From: a virus
Reading direction: 5' to 3' (one strand)
Virus record (IMG/VR): IMGVR_UViG_3300017739_000004
Location: 38,949 to 102,948 of that record
Length of the DNA: 64,000 bases
This document shows, one piece after another, positions 1,704 through 9,106 of the stretch. The notes beneath the pieces were generated by a model. The model was not told where the DNA came from. It saw nothing but the letters and a program-made list of their open reading frames with translations, and made no database searches. The translations under genes were made by a program, and so were the position numbers. Position 1 is the stretch's first letter; each line of letters begins with the position of its first letter.

Positions 1704-1999
1704 TGGATGTACAAATCACAGAAGCTGATTTTACTATTGTTTCTCTAATCACTGACTATGGCTTTCCAACTGTAATGGTAGTTGGGTTAGGATATTTTGT
1801 CTATTTCGTATGGCAATTTATTAATAATAATATCGAGCCAGAAATAGAAAAGATGCATTTCCAATTAATAAAAGTGATTGACCAAATGAGAATGTTGGAC
1901 CAAGATTTAATTAGGCTTCAACAAAAAGTAGATGTAGTTTTAGAATATAAAGAGAATGAAAAAAAGAAACGAGGAGAATTGGGAAAAGATGAAAAGTAA
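1703..1999 (+). CDS. Single-TM plus coiled-coil membrane protein, probable paralog of the upstream gene
   Basis: LITDYGFPTVMVVGLGYFVYFVW; same length (98 aa) and layout; TAATG overlap. Confidence 0.75.
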   Translation: MDVQITEADFTIVSLITDYGFPTVMVVGLGYFVYFVWQFINNNIEPEIEKMHFQLIKVIDQMRMLDQDLIRLQQKVDVVLEYKENEKKKRGELGKDEK

Positions 2000-2495
2000 T
2001 TTAGAAGTTGCTGGATTAATTGCTATATTTGGTTTATCTTTGTATGGCGTATCACCTGCAATGTCTGCAGATGAAATTGTACATAAGTTCAAAAATCCAT
2101 CATTTAGTGGAGTTGGTACAGGCGCACATTATCTTACAATAGAAAACCAGGAACATTCCAGAAAAAAAGCGATCGAAGATGCACTTGAAGCTGCAAAGAA
2201 TGCTGCTGAAAGAGAGGCAGAGAATTCAACTCTTGCAAAATTTATTAGAAACCTAGAGAGTAGAATATATGCTCAATTTGCTAAACAATTAGTTGAGTCA
2301 ATGTTCTCTAATGATAACCCTGCGGGGTTTGGTTCTTTTATTTTAGAAGGTAATATAATCACATGGGAAGTTGTCACAGATGAATCAGGTGCAGAGTTTA
2401 TTAGATTGACAGTTGTAAGTGAAGATGGAACAGAAACAGTAATTGAAATACCTGTAGGTACAGGAAACTTTGGACAAGACCCAGATAATGGTTAG
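1989..2495 (+). CDS. csgF: Curli assembly protein CsgF-like
   Basis: Signal peptide then EIVHKFKNPSFSG (CsgF NPxFxG motif); F..NLESRIYAQ; directly upstream of csgG; ATG 1989 preferred. Confidence 0.85.
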   Translation: MKSNLEVAGLIAIFGLSLYGVSPAMSADEIVHKFKNPSFSGVGTGAHYLTIENQEHSRKKAIEDALEAAKNAAEREAENSTLAKFIRNLESRIYAQFAKQLVESMFSNDNPAGFGSFILEGNIITWEVVTDESGAEFIRLTVVSEDGTETVIEIPVGTGNFGQDPDNG

Positions 2496-3420
2496 AGTAC
2501 TTTTAGCATCATTAATAATTTTAAGTGGTTGTGCTTCGATACCGAAGTGGTCGGACGATCCACAAGATTGTAAGATACCAAAGATTGTTGATGTAGTCAC
2601 GGCTGTACAAAAAGTTTTTGAAAGAAAATACATTTGTGTAGATATGCCAGAGGTTGTTAACTTACCTGCTTATATACAATTATTAGAATTACCACCACCA
2701 ACAATTGAAAAACCAGTTGTTGCAGTATATAGTTTTTTAGATAAAACGGGTCAAAGAAAAGCAAGAGAAGGTATAGCAGATTTCTCAACAGCTACGACTC
2801 AAGGTGGAGTAGAATTATTAGTAGACGCTCTAAAGACAGCCGGAGGTGGCACATGGTTTAGAGTTGTTGAAAGACAAGGCGTAGATCATCTAGTTAGAGA
2901 AAGACAGATTATCAGAAGCGCTAGACAAGAGTTTGCAGGTGATAATGGCCCGCAACCTTTAAACCCTTTATTATTCGCAGGAATGATTATAGAGGGTGGA
3001 ATAATTGGTTATGATACTAACATAATGACGGGAGGTCGGGGCGCACGAACTCTCGGTATTGGTTATGCGAAACAATATCGTAAAGATGTTGTGACTGTTT
3101 CGGTTAGAGCTGTTTCAGTTCTGACTGGTGAAGTATTATTAAACGTCCAAGCTCGTAAGACTATTTTATCTTATGGGTCAGGTGGTGATATCTTTCGTTT
3201 TATAGAGGAAGGTACTCAACTAGTAGAATATGAGGACGGTGTGGGAAATAATGAGTCGGTGACATATGCAACACGAGCAGCAATTGAAGCTGCGGTGTTG
3301 GAATTAATTTACCAAGGCCACGATCGTGGTTATTGGAATATAAGTGATGGGCATCGCCATCCACATCTTAATGATGGGGTAAACGATAAACATCAATTAG
3401 AGGAGTACGAAAATGAATAA
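2488..3420 (+). CDS. csgG: Curli secretion channel lipoprotein CsgG
   Basis: Lipobox LSGC from ATG 2488; VAVYSFLDKTGQRK, WFRVVERQG..LVRERQIIRS, EGGIIGYDTN, VLTGEVL. Confidence 0.92.
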   Translation: MVRVLLASLIILSGCASIPKWSDDPQDCKIPKIVDVVTAVQKVFERKYICVDMPEVVNLPAYIQLLELPPPTIEKPVVAVYSFLDKTGQRKAREGIADFSTATTQGGVELLVDALKTAGGGTWFRVVERQGVDHLVRERQIIRSARQEFAGDNGPQPLNPLLFAGMIIEGGIIGYDTNIMTGGRGARTLGIGYAKQYRKDVVTVSVRAVSVLTGEVLLNVQARKTILSYGSGGDIFRFIEEGTQLVEYEDGVGNNESVTYATRAAIEAAVLELIYQGHDRGYWNISDGHRHPHLNDGVNDKHQLEEYENE

Positions 3421-4150
3421 ACTTTTAAGTATAGCATTGCTATTGTCGACTACTTTTGTTTTCGCACAAGCCACTGATGATAACGAAATTAAGATCACAC
3501 AATCTGGTGATACCTTAAAATTATATGTAGACCAAATCGGTTTTGGAAACAAAATCGGCGGTGATGACGCTTCAGGCGGTTCACTATCTGCTATGACTAT
3601 TACAGGTAGTTCACTAGAGTTTGATTTAGATTTTACTGGTAATCAAAACGTTTTATTTGGACCAGTCGAAGCTGATAGTTCTTACTATAAGCTCGATTTT
3701 ACTGGTGATTCAAACAAAATAGATTGGAATATTGGTTATATCGGAAGTGCTGATGATTCAAACATTAACTTTGATGTGACAGGTGATTCTAACGAATTTG
3801 ACCTAGATCAAGGTTATGTTGCTAGTGCAGAAAGATTAGATGCTGATTTAATTTTAATTGGTAGTTCAAATATATTTGACATAGACTGGGAAAGTGATGA
3901 TAACGTTTGGGACTTTGATATTACAGGAGATTCAAACAATATTAACACATTACAAAATGACGGCGAACACAATCTTGAGTTCACTTTAGTAGGTGATTCA
4001 GCTGACGTCGACATTAATCAAATATCTGGTACATGTGCAAGTGGAGCAGGAACAAGTTGTGTTTCACCAAATGCAAATATTGTATTAGATGTGACTTCAG
4101 ACAATGCAATCATTCAACTTAATCAACAAGATTCGTCTAACGATTCTTAA
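3413..4150 (+). CDS. Secreted curlin-like beta-repeat protein
   Basis: GAGGAG SD; signal peptide; repeated xTGDSNx / QxG units; acidic; next to csgG. Confidence 0.7.
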   Translation: MNKLLSIALLLSTTFVFAQATDDNEIKITQSGDTLKLYVDQIGFGNKIGGDDASGGSLSAMTITGSSLEFDLDFTGNQNVLFGPVEADSSYYKLDFTGDSNKIDWNIGYIGSADDSNINFDVTGDSNEFDLDQGYVASAERLDADLILIGSSNIFDIDWESDDNVWDFDITGDSNNINTLQNDGEHNLEFTLVGDSADVDINQISGTCASGAGTSCVSPNANIVLDVTSDNAIIQLNQQDSSNDS

Positions 4151-5213
4151 TTTATTACTCATTAGTGGGTTTGCTTTTTCTAGCGAACCCATTGGTGGTA
4201 TTAAAGAATCTATTGGCTATGGTGGAATTACAAGAGATGATGAAACTTATAACCATGATGTCGGATTAGAAATTCAACTTAACGATCAAGCTGAAACAGC
4301 AAATGGTCGTATGCTTATAGAGTTCTTAGACGATGCAGAACTCCAACTCAAAGAACATTCAAGGGTTTTAATAGATACGGTTTATTACGATCCAAACCCA
4401 AACCTATCAAAAATGACTATGCGTATGGTCAGTGGAACAGCAAGATTTGCATCAGGTTCTAAGGGTTTAATTAATAAAGCAAACATAGAAATATCAACAC
4501 CAACCGCTACAATTGCTGTAAGGGGCACGGACTTCACCACAACAATAGATGAAATTGGACGAAGCCTTGTTATCTTATTACCTGACGATAAGGGAGAACC
4601 TTCAGGTGTTATTGAAGTCACCAGTTTAGGTGGAACAGTTGTATTAGATGAAGCTTATGCAGCCACAATGGTGTCATCTTATGATTTACCACCAACAACA
4701 GAAACCGTAATTCAAGGTATAACACCTGCACTGATTGATAATATGTTTATTGTGAATCCACCAGAGGAGGTGAAAGAGGCAGTAGAAGAACAATTAGCCG
4801 ATGAACAAAACGAAGATCAAGGAATATTAGATATAGATTTATTAGACTTTACTGAATTAGAAGAAGATGAACTAGAAGAAGATGACTTAGGTGAGTTTAA
4901 TGAATTAGATATTGATGAATTAGATGTAGAGTTTTTAATAGATGTTTTAGACATTGTAGATTCTGGTGATCTATTTGATACATTAGGTGAGTTTGATATT
5001 CAAGGCGCAACAAGAGGATTTAATGATGAATCACAATATAATGTCTTTTTAAGAAATGGTGATTTAGTATTTTATAGAAATGTAAATGGTGTAATAGAAT
5101 TACAATTCGAAGCTGGAGGTAGCTTTACCTTAGACACAGATACTCCAACATGGTCAGGTATAATTACTGGTAATGATGGAGAAGATATAATAGTAAGGAT
5201 TAGACAGTTATAA
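4104..5213 (+). CDS. Exported FecR-domain protein with an acidic C-terminal region
   Basis: Signal-like N-terminus; ETANGRMLIEFLD, ISTPTATIAVRGTDF (FecR-family pattern). Confidence 0.8.
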   Translation: MQSFNLINKIRLTILNLLLISGFAFSSEPIGGIKESIGYGGITRDDETYNHDVGLEIQLNDQAETANGRMLIEFLDDAELQLKEHSRVLIDTVYYDPNPNLSKMTMRMVSGTARFASGSKGLINKANIEISTPTATIAVRGTDFTTTIDEIGRSLVILLPDDKGEPSGVIEVTSLGGTVVLDEAYAATMVSSYDLPPTTETVIQGITPALIDNMFIVNPPEEVKEAVEEQLADEQNEDQGILDIDLLDFTELEEDELEEDDLGEFNELDIDELDVEFLIDVLDIVDSGDLFDTLGEFDIQGATRGFNDESQYNVFLRNGDLVFYRNVNGVIELQFEAGGSFTLDTDTPTWSGIITGNDGEDIIVRIRQL

Positions 5214-5216
5214 ATA
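5209..5216 (+). promoter_or_regulatory. T4-type late promoter
   Basis: TATAAATA 5 nt before ATG 5222. Confidence 0.65.
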
Positions 5217-5221
5217 AAACT

Positions 5222-5899
5222 ATGAATAAGAACTTCCATTACAATTTCGTACCACTATTAACAACTATGTTTATGTTTCTTGCATTTGATTTAGTTGCTG
5301 GTCCTACAGACGATAATCATATTCACGTCGAACAAGTAGCTGATGGTGATAATATAGAATTAAATATATCTCAAATAGGTTTTGCAAATAGCATAGAATT
5401 TTCATTTGCGCATTCAGGTAATGTATTTAATCTTCAACAAAATGGTAATGGTAATAGCATATCATGGGTGTCATATTGGGGCTCAGGTAAATCATGGGGT
5501 GGAGATGTTGATGGTTCTAATAACACAGAAAATATAATTCAGTATGATGGTGCAACTTATGGTAGACATATATGGGGTGATGAAAATATTGTAGATGTTT
5601 ATCAACATGGAAATCATACACACAATTTAGACATTCACGTTGATGATGTCGAACATGACTCATGGCAAGATGGTGCTGGGTCGCATTATAGTCATGTATA
5701 TTATTATGGTAATTCAGATGGTTCAATAACTAATCTTAAACAAGAAGGTACAGGAAATCATAATGCACAAGTAGTTTTATATGGAAATTATTTAACAACA
5801 CTTAATGTTTTACAACAAGGGTCAAATAATCAGTCATATAATTTAACACAAAATTGTCAAACAGTAGGTGGATGCACAGTTAACGTCACACAAGATTAA
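5222..5899 (+). CDS. Second curlin-like repeat protein (His/Asn/Gln-rich)
   Basis: Signal peptide; repeats QNGNGN, QHGNH, QEGTGNHNA, QQGSNNQ; N-terminus and C-terminal Cys pair resemble the 3413 protein. Confidence 0.72.
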   Translation: MNKNFHYNFVPLLTTMFMFLAFDLVAGPTDDNHIHVEQVADGDNIELNISQIGFANSIEFSFAHSGNVFNLQQNGNGNSISWVSYWGSGKSWGGDVDGSNNTENIIQYDGATYGRHIWGDENIVDVYQHGNHTHNLDIHVDDVEHDSWQDGAGSHYSHVYYYGNSDGSITNLKQEGTGNHNAQVVLYGNYLTTLNVLQQGSNNQSYNLTQNCQTVGGCTVNVTQD

Positions 5900-7737
5900 T
5901 GAAATATATTACTTCGGTATGGTCTACATTATTACTCGTATCAGCTCTGATATTAATAAGAGTTTATGATCCAGCAATAGTCGAGCAAGTCAGGCTCAAT
6001 ACATTCGATCAATACATCAAAACACTTCCAAAAGAAAAATCAAATGATATAGTACTTGTTAATATCGGTGAGAAATCACTTGGTAAGATTGGTCAATTTC
6101 CATGGCCTAGACAAGAATACGCACAAATGATTTCTGACCTAAGAAATATTAATGCTGGCTATATTGGATTTACTATAATGTTTCCAGAACCAGATAGATT
6201 TGGTGGTGACGATATATTTGCTCAATACATACAAGACAATGGGATTATCTTATCACAAGACGCAGATAACAATGGAAGGGCCGACAGTGCACCGTATGTA
6301 GGGCATGCACTATTTGGTACATCAGACCCTTTAGATTTTATATACAAATATAATGGTATAGTTGCTAATATTAAGAATTTAGAACAAGAGGCATGGGGTA
6401 TAGGATTAATAAATGCATCACCTGAAGTAGATAATATCACTAGAAGAATACCACTTATGACAAATGTAAAAGATGAAATCTATCCATCTTTTGCTTTAGA
6501 ATTAACTAGATTAAATATGGATCAGTTATCTTATACTATAAAATCAAATGAAGCAGGTATAGAAAGTGTAGTAGTTAGACCTTTTGAAATACCTACAGAT
6601 AGTGATGGTTCAATATGGTTAAAATGGAATACAGAATTTGAAGAAATAGAATACGAAAGGCTAATGCCAGGGTATGATAATTTAGAAGGTAAGACTGTTA
6701 TAGTCGGTGTATCAGCCAGTGGATTAGGTGCTCAGATTCCTACTCCTGGTGGTTTGATGAATCCAAACCAGCTTCAAGCCGCAGCTCTTCAAACAATTCT
6801 GTCAGACAATCCGATTTCTCGTCCTCTATGGGCTGATTCAATAGAAATTCTTGTAAGTGGAATTCTGGCTCTGTTGTTAATTCTGTTGATATATCGCGCA
6901 CCGATTTGGGCTTCAGGACTCGGCTTCGTTGTTCTTTGTGTTGGACAAGCCGGATTGACTTTTTATATCTGGAATAAATTTTATATACTCCTCGATCTTA
7001 GTTATTCACTAATATTATATATAATATCTTTTGCTTCAACGAGTTTTAATAACTTCTATAAACAATTTGCTCTTAGACAACAGATAAAGAAACAATTTGA
7101 AACATATTTGGATCCAAGACAAGTGGCTCTATTACAAAAAGACCCAAGCAGATTAAAGCTTGGTGGTGAAAGAAAAGAAATGACTTTCTTGTTTATGGAT
7201 ATAGTAGGATTTACTCCTATATCAGAACATTATAAAAATAATAATGACCCAGAAGGGTTAGTAGAAATTATAAATAATTATTTAAACCGTATGACCAATA
7301 TTATCTTAGACAATGGTGGTACTATTGACAAATATATGGGTGATTGTATAATGGCCTTTTGGAATGCTCCATTAGACTGTGAAGATCATGCATACCTAGC
7401 TACTAAAACAGCTATGGAAATTGAGAGAGCAGCAGATGAACTTATTAAAGAACTTGAAGATAAAGGCTTACCACGTATTGATGTTGGTATTGGTATTAAT
7501 TCCGGGACTTGCATCGTCGGAAACATGGGATCCGAAACTAGATTTGACTATTCCGTCATTGGAGATGCCGTCAACTTGGCAGCTAGACTCGAAGGCCAAA
7601 CACGCAATTACGATGGGGTTCGAGTGTTGTTGGGCGAACAAACATATAAAAGCTGTTCATCTGGAGAATTCACTGAAGTCGATAGAATCAAAGTTAAAGG
7701 TAAATCCGAACAGGTTAGAATATATACCCCAATTTGA
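5899..7737 (+). CDS. CHASE2-domain class III adenylate cyclase
   Basis: IVLVNIGEKSL..GQFPWPR (CHASE2); three TM helices; FMDIVGFT, IDKYMGD, FDYSVIGDAVNLAARLE catalytic motifs. Confidence 0.93.
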   Translation: MKYITSVWSTLLLVSALILIRVYDPAIVEQVRLNTFDQYIKTLPKEKSNDIVLVNIGEKSLGKIGQFPWPRQEYAQMISDLRNINAGYIGFTIMFPEPDRFGGDDIFAQYIQDNGIILSQDADNNGRADSAPYVGHALFGTSDPLDFIYKYNGIVANIKNLEQEAWGIGLINASPEVDNITRRIPLMTNVKDEIYPSFALELTRLNMDQLSYTIKSNEAGIESVVVRPFEIPTDSDGSIWLKWNTEFEEIEYERLMPGYDNLEGKTVIVGVSASGLGAQIPTPGGLMNPNQLQAAALQTILSDNPISRPLWADSIEILVSGILALLLILLIYRAPIWASGLGFVVLCVGQAGLTFYIWNKFYILLDLSYSLILYIISFASTSFNNFYKQFALRQQIKKQFETYLDPRQVALLQKDPSRLKLGGERKEMTFLFMDIVGFTPISEHYKNNNDPEGLVEIINNYLNRMTNIILDNGGTIDKYMGDCIMAFWNAPLDCEDHAYLATKTAMEIERAADELIKELEDKGLPRIDVGIGINSGTCIVGNMGSETRFDYSVIGDAVNLAARLEGQTRNYDGVRVLLGEQTYKSCSSGEFTEVDRIKVKGKSEQVRIYTPI

Positions 7738-8068
7738 TTTCATAGAACCAGCACATTGGACATCATACGCAGTATCTTTTGCATTACAATATGCCGATAT
7801 TCATTATACTAATAAAGCTTTACAATATCAATGTGTACGTGAGCTTAATCCTTTAGTTGGTAAAAGACCATCATGGAATCATTTAGTAGCTCACAAGGTA
7901 ATTACATTGTGGCCTGTGTATCACCCAGACTTTAATAAGTATCCAATCACTGATAAAGACTTAAATCAAGTTAATGTGTTTATGGCCATTGTTGTATTAC
8001 ATAATAAAAGAGTGCTTGAAAAAGTGCAAAGACACCCAGATATCTGTCCTAAGATTTCTACTATTTAA
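7421..8068 (+). CDS. Hypothetical exported/membrane protein overlapping the cyclase 3' end (start uncertain)
   Basis: Open frame fills 7738-8068; plausible Met starts lie inside the cyclase gene; signal-like MLVLVLIPGLASS. Confidence 0.55.
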   Translation: MREQQMNLLKNLKIKAYHVLMLVLVLIPGLASSETWDPKLDLTIPSLEMPSTWQLDSKAKHAITMGFECCWANKHIKAVHLENSLKSIESKLKVNPNRLEYIPQFDFIEPAHWTSYAVSFALQYADIHYTNKALQYQCVRELNPLVGKRPSWNHLVAHKVITLWPVYHPDFNKYPITDKDLNQVNVFMAIVVLHNKRVLEKVQRHPDICPKISTI

Positions 8069-8080
8069 GTTATATTACAC

Positions 8081-8124
8081 TGTGTGACAGTTGTGTGACA
8101 ACTGTGTAACAATTGTGTGAATTC
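8081..8124 (-). repeat. Four 11-bp-period direct repeats, Pho-box/OmpR-family-operator-like
   Basis: tgtgtgacagt tgtgtgacaac tgtgtaacaat tgtgtgaattc. Confidence 0.8.
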
Positions 8125-8136
8125 TTTAAAAAACCG

Positions 8137-8165
8137 TTTACAAACCTATCAAACTATAGTATAAT
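8137..8165 (+). promoter_or_regulatory. Sigma70-type early promoter
   Basis: TTTACA-N17-TATAAT. Confidence 0.8.
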
Positions 8166-8193: not shown

Positions 8194-8490
8194 ATGAGTT
8201 ATAACATAATATTAAAATCCGTCGACGGATTTCAAAGCGTAGATAAAGAAGCAGTAGTTGCTTTTGTAAAAGATAAATTAAGCTATAGTGTAGACCCAGT
8301 AGCTAGATCAGAAAACAAGTTCTGGTTAAATGGAAAATGGGAAGGCGGTAAATTTTACGCATTCCTAGAAGGTCAAAGATACTATCAGTTAGTTATCAAT
8401 AGATTTGATTTTGGAATCAAAGCTGGTGGAGATTTTAATTCTTGGAATGTAGCAGGCATTCTTAGAGAAGAAATTAAGGAGGCGTTATAA
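8194..8490 (+). CDS. Early hypothetical protein
   Basis: TAAGGAG SD; first gene after the promoter. Confidence 0.8.
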   Translation: MSYNIILKSVDGFQSVDKEAVVAFVKDKLSYSVDPVARSENKFWLNGKWEGGKFYAFLEGQRYYQLVINRFDFGIKAGGDFNSWNVAGILREEIKEAL

Positions 8491-8726
8491 TGCAAGTAGT
8501 TATAAAAGGAAACCCAATATATAATGGCGTGGTACGTGATGGCGCCATTATAGAAATACCGGTACCAGCAGAATTGCATGTTCTGGCTTTAGCAAAAGGT
8601 CCAGATTCAGGCGATGCATGGGACCTATTGTGTAGAAAGTTACCATCCTATGGTTTTATGAACCCTATTGGTAAAATGCACATAAGCCATCTAGTGATAG
8701 ATGGAGTGGAAAAAAGGTTCCACTAA
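8490..8726 (+). CDS. Early hypothetical protein
   Basis: AAGGAGG SD; TAATG overlap. Confidence 0.8.
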   Translation: MQVVIKGNPIYNGVVRDGAIIEIPVPAELHVLALAKGPDSGDAWDLLCRKLPSYGFMNPIGKMHISHLVIDGVEKRFH

Positions 8727-8734
8727 AAATAAAC

Positions 8735-9020
8735 AGGAATCGAGGAAGAGCTGTAGATGGTTGGTTGTTGTGAAGCTCTACGAGATAACCTTAGTAATGA
8801 TTGGTTTAAAATCAATTAAGACGTGAAATATGGTGTTGAGATCATTACAAAAAAAGGTTAACAAAGAAGTGACAGAAATTTTGGATAAGCAATTGGGATG
8901 TCATGGTAAACGAGATTCTTTATGGTCGTTAGCTATCGACCTAGATAAAATTCAGGTAAGGCCTGACTTAGAAGGACACGCTGTCGAACTTGGGGTAACA
9001 CCCAAGCCATTGAAACACCG
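8735..9020 (+). ncRNA. Candidate multi-stem structured non-coding RNA
   Basis: About eight stems found by eye in a gene-free interval (see findings). Confidence 0.5.
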
Positions 9021-9030
9021 CAAAAACTTA

Positions 9031-9071
9031 TGTGACCAGCCAGTCACAAATTGTCACACAATTGTCACACA
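9031..9071 (+). repeat. GTCACA repeats at 10-11 bp spacing, inverted relative to the 8081 array
   Basis: tgtgac..ca gtcacaaatt gtcacacaatt gtcacaca. Confidence 0.8.
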
Positions 9072-9077
9072 AAACAG

Positions 9078-9106
9078 TTGACATTTACAGAAAAGCGTGA
9101 TACTAT
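9078..9106 (+). promoter_or_regulatory. Sigma70-type early promoter
   Basis: TTGACA-N17-TACTAT. Confidence 0.8.

Follow-up and report, generated by a model that had tools for sequence, protein, structure and literature searches.

The interval 8735-9031 on the plus strand of the window, the 64,000-nt stretch of viral DNA analysed here, is very probably the gene for a non-coding RNA of about 297 nt. The RNA belongs to an uncatalogued family found in uncultured marine T4-like myoviruses related to the pelagimyophages. The element is a single discrete conserved unit (element positions 1-297, with 8735 as position 1). Motif scans of IMG/VR and of JGI/Tara metagenomes expanded the set of viral and metagenome loci to 121, among which 68 sequences are distinct, and the BLAST, nhmmer and covariance model (CM) matches place the element between unrelated flanks. 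The full-length matches all begin at the base equivalent to 8735 and stop at about 9014-9031. For example, three of the seven contigs in the first set of related viral contigs (L007, L008 and L010) show homology to the window limited to 8735-9031, at 81-94% identity, and their flanks are unrelated. The gene is a movable, self-contained unit.

An earlier reading of the DNA, made from the sequence alone, had placed a large structured phage RNA of a class that it could not name at 8735-9020. Its 5' edge is retained here; its 3' edge falls short of the true end at about 9031. The proposal of such an RNA is supported by covariation, sharp boundaries, promoters and terminators in the relatives, the lack of a conserved ORF and the lack of an Rfam match. 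Promoters, terminators and tRNA junctions are the basis for what is inferred here about the transcript, about where it starts and stops and about how abundant it is.

Distribution and phage context

The window spans positions 38949-102948 of an IMG/VR virus record, a linear sequence of 103 kb with a G+C content of 33%. Its genes include those for baseplate wedge proteins of the T4 type and for a large terminase. The baseplate wedge, terminase and gp23 genes indicate that the phage is T4-like. The nearest relatives are the cultured isolates Mosig, Melnitz and HTVC008M and the complete genome C48C1. Among cultured or complete phages, the terminase is most similar to that of C48C1 (67% identity), followed by the cyanomyoviruses (about 45%). 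The carriers of the RNA comprise more than 100 contigs of marine T4-like phages, Tara Oceans assemblies among them. A search with the family covariance model R1 showed that the RNA is absent from C48C1, Mosig, Melnitz and HTVC008M. Exact motifs gave no match in 185,579 prokaryote species genomes, which were scanned twice, and blastn with either clade of the family found no match among 50,697 phage records.

Upstream of the RNA, the window contains a cassette (1956-7737) with genes for CsgG (2470-3420), a FecR-domain protein (4104-5213) and a CHASE2 class III cyclase (5899-7737). The curli/FecR/CHASE2-cyclase cassette has already been published for pelagimyophages (PMC7029224). A 215-aa ORF (7421-8068) overlaps the last ~300 nt of the cyclase gene in a different frame.

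Secondary structure and pseudoknots

The covariation analysis showed that helix P1 closes a four-way junction holding P2, P3 and P4, and that the hairpins P5, P6 and P8 come after it; all of these lie on the plus strand. The eight stems listed in the sequence-only reading were all found, and compensatory changes keep them. P1 (8735-8741/8914-8920, element 1-7/180-186) changes on both sides at four of its seven pairs; a C-G pair became U-A in exactly the same four sequences, and a change from A-U to G-C was also seen. The P2 hairpin (8747-8779) has its stem at 8747-52/8774-79 (element 13-18/40-45) with five covarying pairs, and its G/U-rich loop of 21 nt is conserved. Variants of this stem are AGAGCU/AGCUCU, GGACU/AGUCC and AAGCU/AGCUU; the stem is entirely different in clade 2 (ACGGAA/UUCCGU or ACGCAC/GUGCGU).

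The P3 arm (8786-8860) consists of P3a, P3b and the small hairpin P3c', which was newly added in this analysis. The central C-G pairs of P3a (8786-92/8854-60, element 52-58/120-126) are general, and its outer pairs are specific to the subgroup of the window. P3b (8794-8802/8840-48, element 60-68/106-114) is 96% paired with four covarying pairs. Its variants are GUAAUGAU, UCCUAAC/GUUAGGA, GUUAUAAC and UCCACAC/GUGUGGA; between the clades the whole stem is replaced, with GUAAUGAU in one and UCCACAC/GUGUGGA in the other. The P3c' hairpin (8811-8827) pairs 8811-14 with 8824-27 (element 77-80/90-93), and the pair 77-93 alternates between A-U and G-C among the members. The 9-nt loop of P3c', AUUAAGACG (8815-8823), is invariant in all 51 aligned sequences.

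The P4 hairpin (8869-8904; stem 8869-74/8899-8904, element 135-140/165-170) covaries at five of six pairs, and the flanking pair 8865-8907 (element 131-173) occurs as A-U and as U-A in 20 sequences each. The P5 hairpin (8924-8941; stem 8924-28/8937-41, element 190-194/203-207) is paired throughout (100%), and its covarying pair is C-G in 22 of the sequences but G-C in 18. The P6 hairpin (8952-8966; stem 8952-56/8962-66, element 218-222/228-232) has the invariant loop UAAGG and covaries when clade 2 is added. Its pairs change from C-G to G-C, from A-U to G-U or G-C, and from G-C to A-U; between the clades the stem reads UCAGG/CCUGA, UGAGG/CCUCA or UGGAG/CUCCA. In the P8 hairpin (8989-9006; stem 8989-94/9001-06, element 255-260/267-272), the inner four to five pairs are kept and they alone are general, with changes from U-A to A-U or G-C.

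Three long-range helices were recognized in addition. A pseudoknot between the P3 loop and the 3' tail had already been proposed, and this pairing (PK1, 8832-8837/9014-9019, element 98-103/280-285) turned out to be the best-supported helix of the RNA; it is 100% paired in 40 sequences with five of six pairs covarying, and 99% paired in the clade 2 alignment A5. The variants of PK1 are GGUGUU/AACACC, GGUAUU/AAUACC, GGCGUU/AACGCC, AGCAUU/AAUGCU, AGUUGU/ACAACU, UGUGUU/AACACA, AAUCGU/ACGAUU and GACUGU/ACAGUC. The other two pseudoknots are new. PK2 joins the P5 loop (8930-33, UAGC) to the P6-P8 linker (8980-83, GCUG; element 196-199/246-249), and its 3' strand (8980-8983) sits within the invariant run GAAGGACACG(C/G)UG. 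Three positions of PK2 covary; one pair is G-C in 20 sequences and C-G in 20, and other members have U-A (L109) or G-C at the neighbouring pair (L091).

PK3 joins the P4 loop (8885-89, AUAAG) to 9027-31 (CUUAU; element 151-155/293-297), the last conserved bases of the RNA. Its types AUAAG/CUUAU, GGAGU/ACUCC, UUGAC/GUCAA and GUGUC/GACAC all occur at the same place. In a permutation test with restricted positions, the mean helix length was 4.73, compared with 3.94±0.12 for permuted tails, and none of 500 permutations reached it; A/T runs confounded a variant of the test in which the best helix could lie at any position. Of the three pseudoknots PK3 is the least secure, and among all helices PK3 and P3a have the weakest support. 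The 3' tail folds back onto the P3 loop through PK1 and onto the P4 loop through PK3, and the P5 loop pairs with the P6-P8 linker through PK2.

More than 100 loop and junction positions are invariant. Two loci (L111 and L129) carry a 94-nt insertion in the P3 internal loop, and the helices stay intact. The insert (L111 506-599, also present in L129) forms small hairpins of its own, and the near-identical L109 lacks it. Three helices were rejected during the analysis. A long-range helix from RNAalifold (element 6-9/280-283) was given up because the four sequences with C7 changed to U compensate at 8914 in P1 and not at element 282. Another RNAalifold helix (78-82/101-105) clashes with PK1, and the covarying P3c' was put in its place. 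The 3-bp hairpin ACA/UGU (242-244/248-250) was given up for PK2, which covaries.

Covariation, strand and folding energy

In alignment A2 (clade 1, 40 distinct sequences), 89.8% of the cells are paired, and two-sided changes are seen in 31 of 63 pairs and in 329 cells. Shuffles gave 105±10 such cells, with 0 of 500 reaching 329, and at most 54 were obtained when the partners were slid by 1-3 columns. Alignment A5 (clade 2, 26 distinct sequences) is 94.7% paired and has two-sided changes in 23 pairs and in 81 cells, compared with 18±3 cells for shuffles and at most 14 for slid partners. A5 holds clade 2 in its own register; the joint CM alignment A4 misplaces the 5' strands of clade 2 by one base. 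RNAalifold by itself reported 17 compensated pairs. The shuffle controls overstate the significance because the sequences are related, and the slid-partner controls and the independent clade lessen this concern. Covariation had been suggested earlier as a check on the RNA, and compensatory changes were indeed well above both shuffles and slid partners in both clades. The cells with G-U greatly outnumber those with A-C (159:21 and 111:16), which indicates that the plus-strand RNA is the folded strand under selection.

A second suggested check, the minimum free energy (MFE) against shuffles, came out the other way. The single-sequence MFE was -65 kcal/mol, compared with -61.6±4.5 for shuffles on the plus strand; the z-scores were -0.76 (plus strand) and -1.10 (minus strand), no better than shuffles. 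The MFE z-scores carry no information for this RNA, and single-sequence energy would have missed it. The case shows that a real pseudoknotted AT-rich RNA can escape a single-sequence MFE z-score (-0.76).

Promoters, terminators and tRNA linkage

About 45 of the 68 distinct loci have their own sigma-70-type promoter motif, which ends 7-9 nt before the first A of the RNA. It consists of TGTACA or TTGACA, a 17-nt spacer, and (TG)nTATAAT or TATACT. This strong promoter, of the early type, would place the start of the RNA at the first A in most relatives. The copy in the window has no promoter directly upstream of 8735, and the ORFs 8194-8490 and 8490-8726 lead into the RNA. Its probable promoter is at 8137-8165 on the plus strand (TTTACA-17-TATAAT, 11 of 12 consensus matches), and the simplest reading is that the window copy is plausibly read through from this promoter across both ORFs.

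The 3' side differs between groups of loci. Most clade 2 loci have the promoter and, about 20 nt past PK3, a run of A, then the hairpin GGTCTCGTAAGAGACC and a run of T; this intrinsic terminator would form the 3' end in most of clade 2. The terminator is common to the convergent major head gene gp23, and gp3, uvsY and uvsW are on the opposite side. A few clade 2 loci have an insert of about 60 nt ahead of the terminator. This extra segment, observed in L085, L102, L107, L086, L089 and L118 between the RNA and the terminator, consists of AAGGAAAGGA followed by an ATG and a 9-codon ORF (MIRKDAVPI). Two further loci (L056 and L075) have a TTGACA promoter after the RNA and no terminator; they also have tRNA-Ala(UGC) and tRNA-Ser(UGA) about 0.5-0.7 kb upstream of the RNA.

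A tRNA-Glu(UUC) gene starts 0-10 nt after PK3 in ten distinct clade 1 sequences. Since RNase P is known to cleave at the start of a tRNA, its cleavage would set the 3' end of the RNA in these loci. Most copies of the RNA are not beside any tRNA. The sole tRNA of the 103-kb record, tRNA-Ala(UGC) at G000:C1:549-624, lies outside the window and does not adjoin the RNA.

Downstream of the window copy are a hairpin (9031-9048), operator-like repeats at 11-bp spacing and the next early promoter at 9078. The perfect palindromic hairpin, TGTGACCAGCCAGTCACA, lies directly 3' of the RNA on the plus strand and has no U-run on that strand. It is kept as TGTGACYGGCGRGTCACA in window-type loci. It consists of two putative operator half-sites, and it is terminator-like on the minus strand alone. 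Repeats resembling TTGTGTGACA occur with 11-bp spacing at 8079-8120 and 9049-9072, just upstream of the promoters at 8137 and 9078, and the two arrays run in opposite orientations. A third array of this type, at another place in the genome (G000:C1:10990-11075), is 85% identical, promoter included, and related loci have TGTTACA arrays after tRNA-Glu. The TTGTGTGACA-like and TGTTACA arrays are probably operator sites for some regulator.

Possible functions of the RNA

The RNA moves between contexts without a partner gene and has more than 100 invariant unpaired positions; these features argue for a trans-acting particle, whose conserved surface might meet something equally conserved. It would be a compact folded particle that is produced early in infection and acts in trans, and neither an antisense RNA nor a cis-regulator. 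Comparison of the loci revealed no conserved neighbouring protein gene across the family. The best single guess, offered tentatively and by analogy, is that the RNA might bind and either redirect or sequester one of the conserved components of the infected cell. The tRNA linkage makes the tRNA, translation or RNA-processing machinery the most plausible target of such an RNA. A ligand sponge is an improbable candidate.

To our knowledge, there are few large RNAs that fold intricately and have many invariant unpaired bases, and those with a known function are ribozymes, guide or scaffold RNAs, or self-assembling particles. It is possible, if somewhat doubtful, that the RNA represents a novel class of natural functional RNA that has a chemistry or an architecture of its own, either a ribozyme or a self-assembling particle smaller than ROOL and GOLLD, which would act early in infection of the hosts of abundant ocean phages. 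These two versions were also weighed separately.

An RNA-only self-assembling particle like ROOL or GOLLD, in which at least one of the covarying 'pseudoknots' would be a bridge between copies, seems rather unlikely. ROOL and GOLLD are phage or prophage RNAs that are often near tRNA islands, and their loop-linker pairings, first taken for pseudoknots, turned out to be intermolecular (bioRxiv 10.1101/2024.12.08.627333). The new RNA likewise is linked to tRNA genes and has three long-range loop-tail or loop-linker helices; covariation cannot separate pairing inside one molecule from pairing between copies. However, it is half or a third of the size of ROOL and GOLLD, whose Rfam models do not match the element in either clade. 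Its promoter is of the early sigma-70 type, whereas GOLLD rises at lysis. Moreover, with a linker of 7 nt between the strands of PK1 and PK3, intramolecular folding is feasible, and a conserved self-complementary loop is absent; the UAGCUA of the window is UACCUA elsewhere.

A candidate ribozyme is unlikely as well; it might, for example, cut its own 5' edge and so free the promoterless copies, such as that of the window, from the upstream mRNA. The size, the three pseudoknots and the >100 invariant unpaired positions are within the ribozyme range, P1 starts at the first conserved base, and in about a third of the loci the 3' UTR of an upstream ORF contains the RNA. However, most copies begin at a promoter and would not need 5' cleavage, and the base at -1 is not conserved. 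The known ribozyme families in Rfam (HDV-like, glmS, hatchet and others that cut at the 5' edge) gave no match; P1 at the 5' edge is all that the RNA shares with ribozymes of the latter kind.

A cis-regulatory leader or riboswitch for downstream genes is very improbable. In the window the RNA is upstream of small early ORFs, and its complexity is like that of large aptamers. However, the downstream neighbours across the family are unrelated (another promoter, a tRNA, or a terminator with the convergent capsid gene), which argues against a cis-regulator; moreover, no expression platform is apparent and no class of downstream gene is conserved.

Search for known RNA families

It is highly improbable that the RNA is a very divergent member of a known family such as RNase P RNA, tmRNA, group I introns, tRNA-like elements, ROOL/GOLLD or T4 rnaC/rnaD. 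It resembles RNase P RNA and tmRNA in length, has a link to tRNA genes and has short words in common with T4 rnaC (UCGAGGAA and AUAUGGU..UGAGAU). However, cmscan against Rfam, which had been proposed as a check, gave no match to the whole window and none that is meaningful at E<=10 to the element alone. The search of Rfam 15 at E<=10 was also run on eight further loci spanning both clades; the scores were low and far below gathering (MS2 operator 10.8 bits, DGCR5 12.5 bits), and these matches are taken as chance. The absence of tRNA, tmRNA and RNase P signatures noted in the sequence-only reading was borne out. ARAGORN found nothing in the window, and in the relatives it found the adjacent tRNA-Glu alone and never the element. 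The RNase P covariance models gave no match at E<=10. In addition, P1 pairs the 5' end with an internal strand and not, as in tmRNA and RNase P RNA, with the 3' end. The family CM with filters off missed T4 rnaC/rnaD (L141 1909-2172), and local alignments against these two RNAs scored 19 and 20, values that 59 and 22 of 300 shuffles also attained.

Several more specific resemblances were considered and rejected. The word CGAGGAAG at the 5' end, which resembles CR-I of RNase P, lacks conservation in clade 2. An origin of the 3' domain from tRNA-Glu was rejected because the P6 stem, although identical to the anticodon stem in some loci, does not follow its changes. The data gave no support for a likeness of P6 to CCAGGUAACGCCUGG of M1 RNA, a two-piece tmRNA, a T-box-like GAA specifier, SRP domain IV, the UUAGAAG of the 23S GTPase centre, a CsrA-type GGA sponge, a G-quadruplex in the P2 loop or a K-turn at the base of P4.

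Coding potential

That the ORF 8830-9081 (83 aa) is a real small protein gene conserved at the protein level can practically be dismissed: tblastn gave 'relatives' at 48-92% identity and the ORF is open within the window's own subgroup, but its frame has 39, 37 and 38 variable columns at codon positions 1, 2 and 3 (p = 0.97, no third-position bias), its ATG is ATA or ATT in 13 of 40 sequences, indels of 1 or 2 nt break the frame in most relatives outside that subgroup, and in clade 2 the frame is open for just 37 codons. Neither strand has a frame that stays open throughout the family, Pfam gave no match to the ORF, and the ORF continues through the operator repeats into the next promoter. Protein-level conservation of this ORF had been named earlier as the result that would speak against an RNA; instead, there is no codon periodicity, the ATG is lost and the frame is broken.

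Comparison with known RNAs

The tmRNA and RNase P RNA are like the new RNA in their similar length, their pseudoknots and their tie to tRNA biology. However, the new RNA lacks both a tRNA-like acceptor and a T arm and does not match RNase P, and its ends are not paired with each other. The csRNAs of Fremin, Bhatt and Kyrpides (2023) share with the new RNA their data source (IMG/VR intergenic regions) and their type of evidence (covariation); these candidates are unnamed and 29-151 nt long (PMC10690425).

By position, the nearest analogue is T4 rnaC/rnaD (species 1 and 2), small stable RNAs of a T4-type phage right beside a tRNA gene. The order in T4 is tRNA-Arg, rnaD, rnaC (L141, T4 70908-71247), which is consistent with co-transcription and processing with the tRNA. 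The two T4 RNAs are back to back (119 nt, 6 nt and 139 nt) immediately after tRNA-Arg, and the 3' end of rnaC has the T-arm-like GGGTTCGAATCCC. However, the T4 system consists of two RNAs downstream of a tRNA; whereas the new RNA is a single unit of about 297 nt upstream of tRNA-Glu. There is neither sequence nor CM similarity between them, and the shared short words are not significant.

The ROOL and GOLLD RNAs are the other close comparison. Like them, the new RNA is phage-encoded and often adjoins tRNA genes, with a T4-like context and tRNA-Glu abutting it in 10 distinct loci; it also has many helices, covarying long-range loop pairings and no partner protein gene close by. ROOL and GOLLD are about 580 and 800 nt long, compared with about 297 nt here, and their Rfam models do not match; the new RNA also differs from them in its marine T4-like myovirus carriers and its early sigma-70-type promoter. 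Its tRNA link parallels the unexplained link of ROOL, GOLLD and T4 species 1 and 2, and 297 nt is compact enough for structure work. The RNA is therefore a tractable case for what tRNA-linked phage RNAs do.
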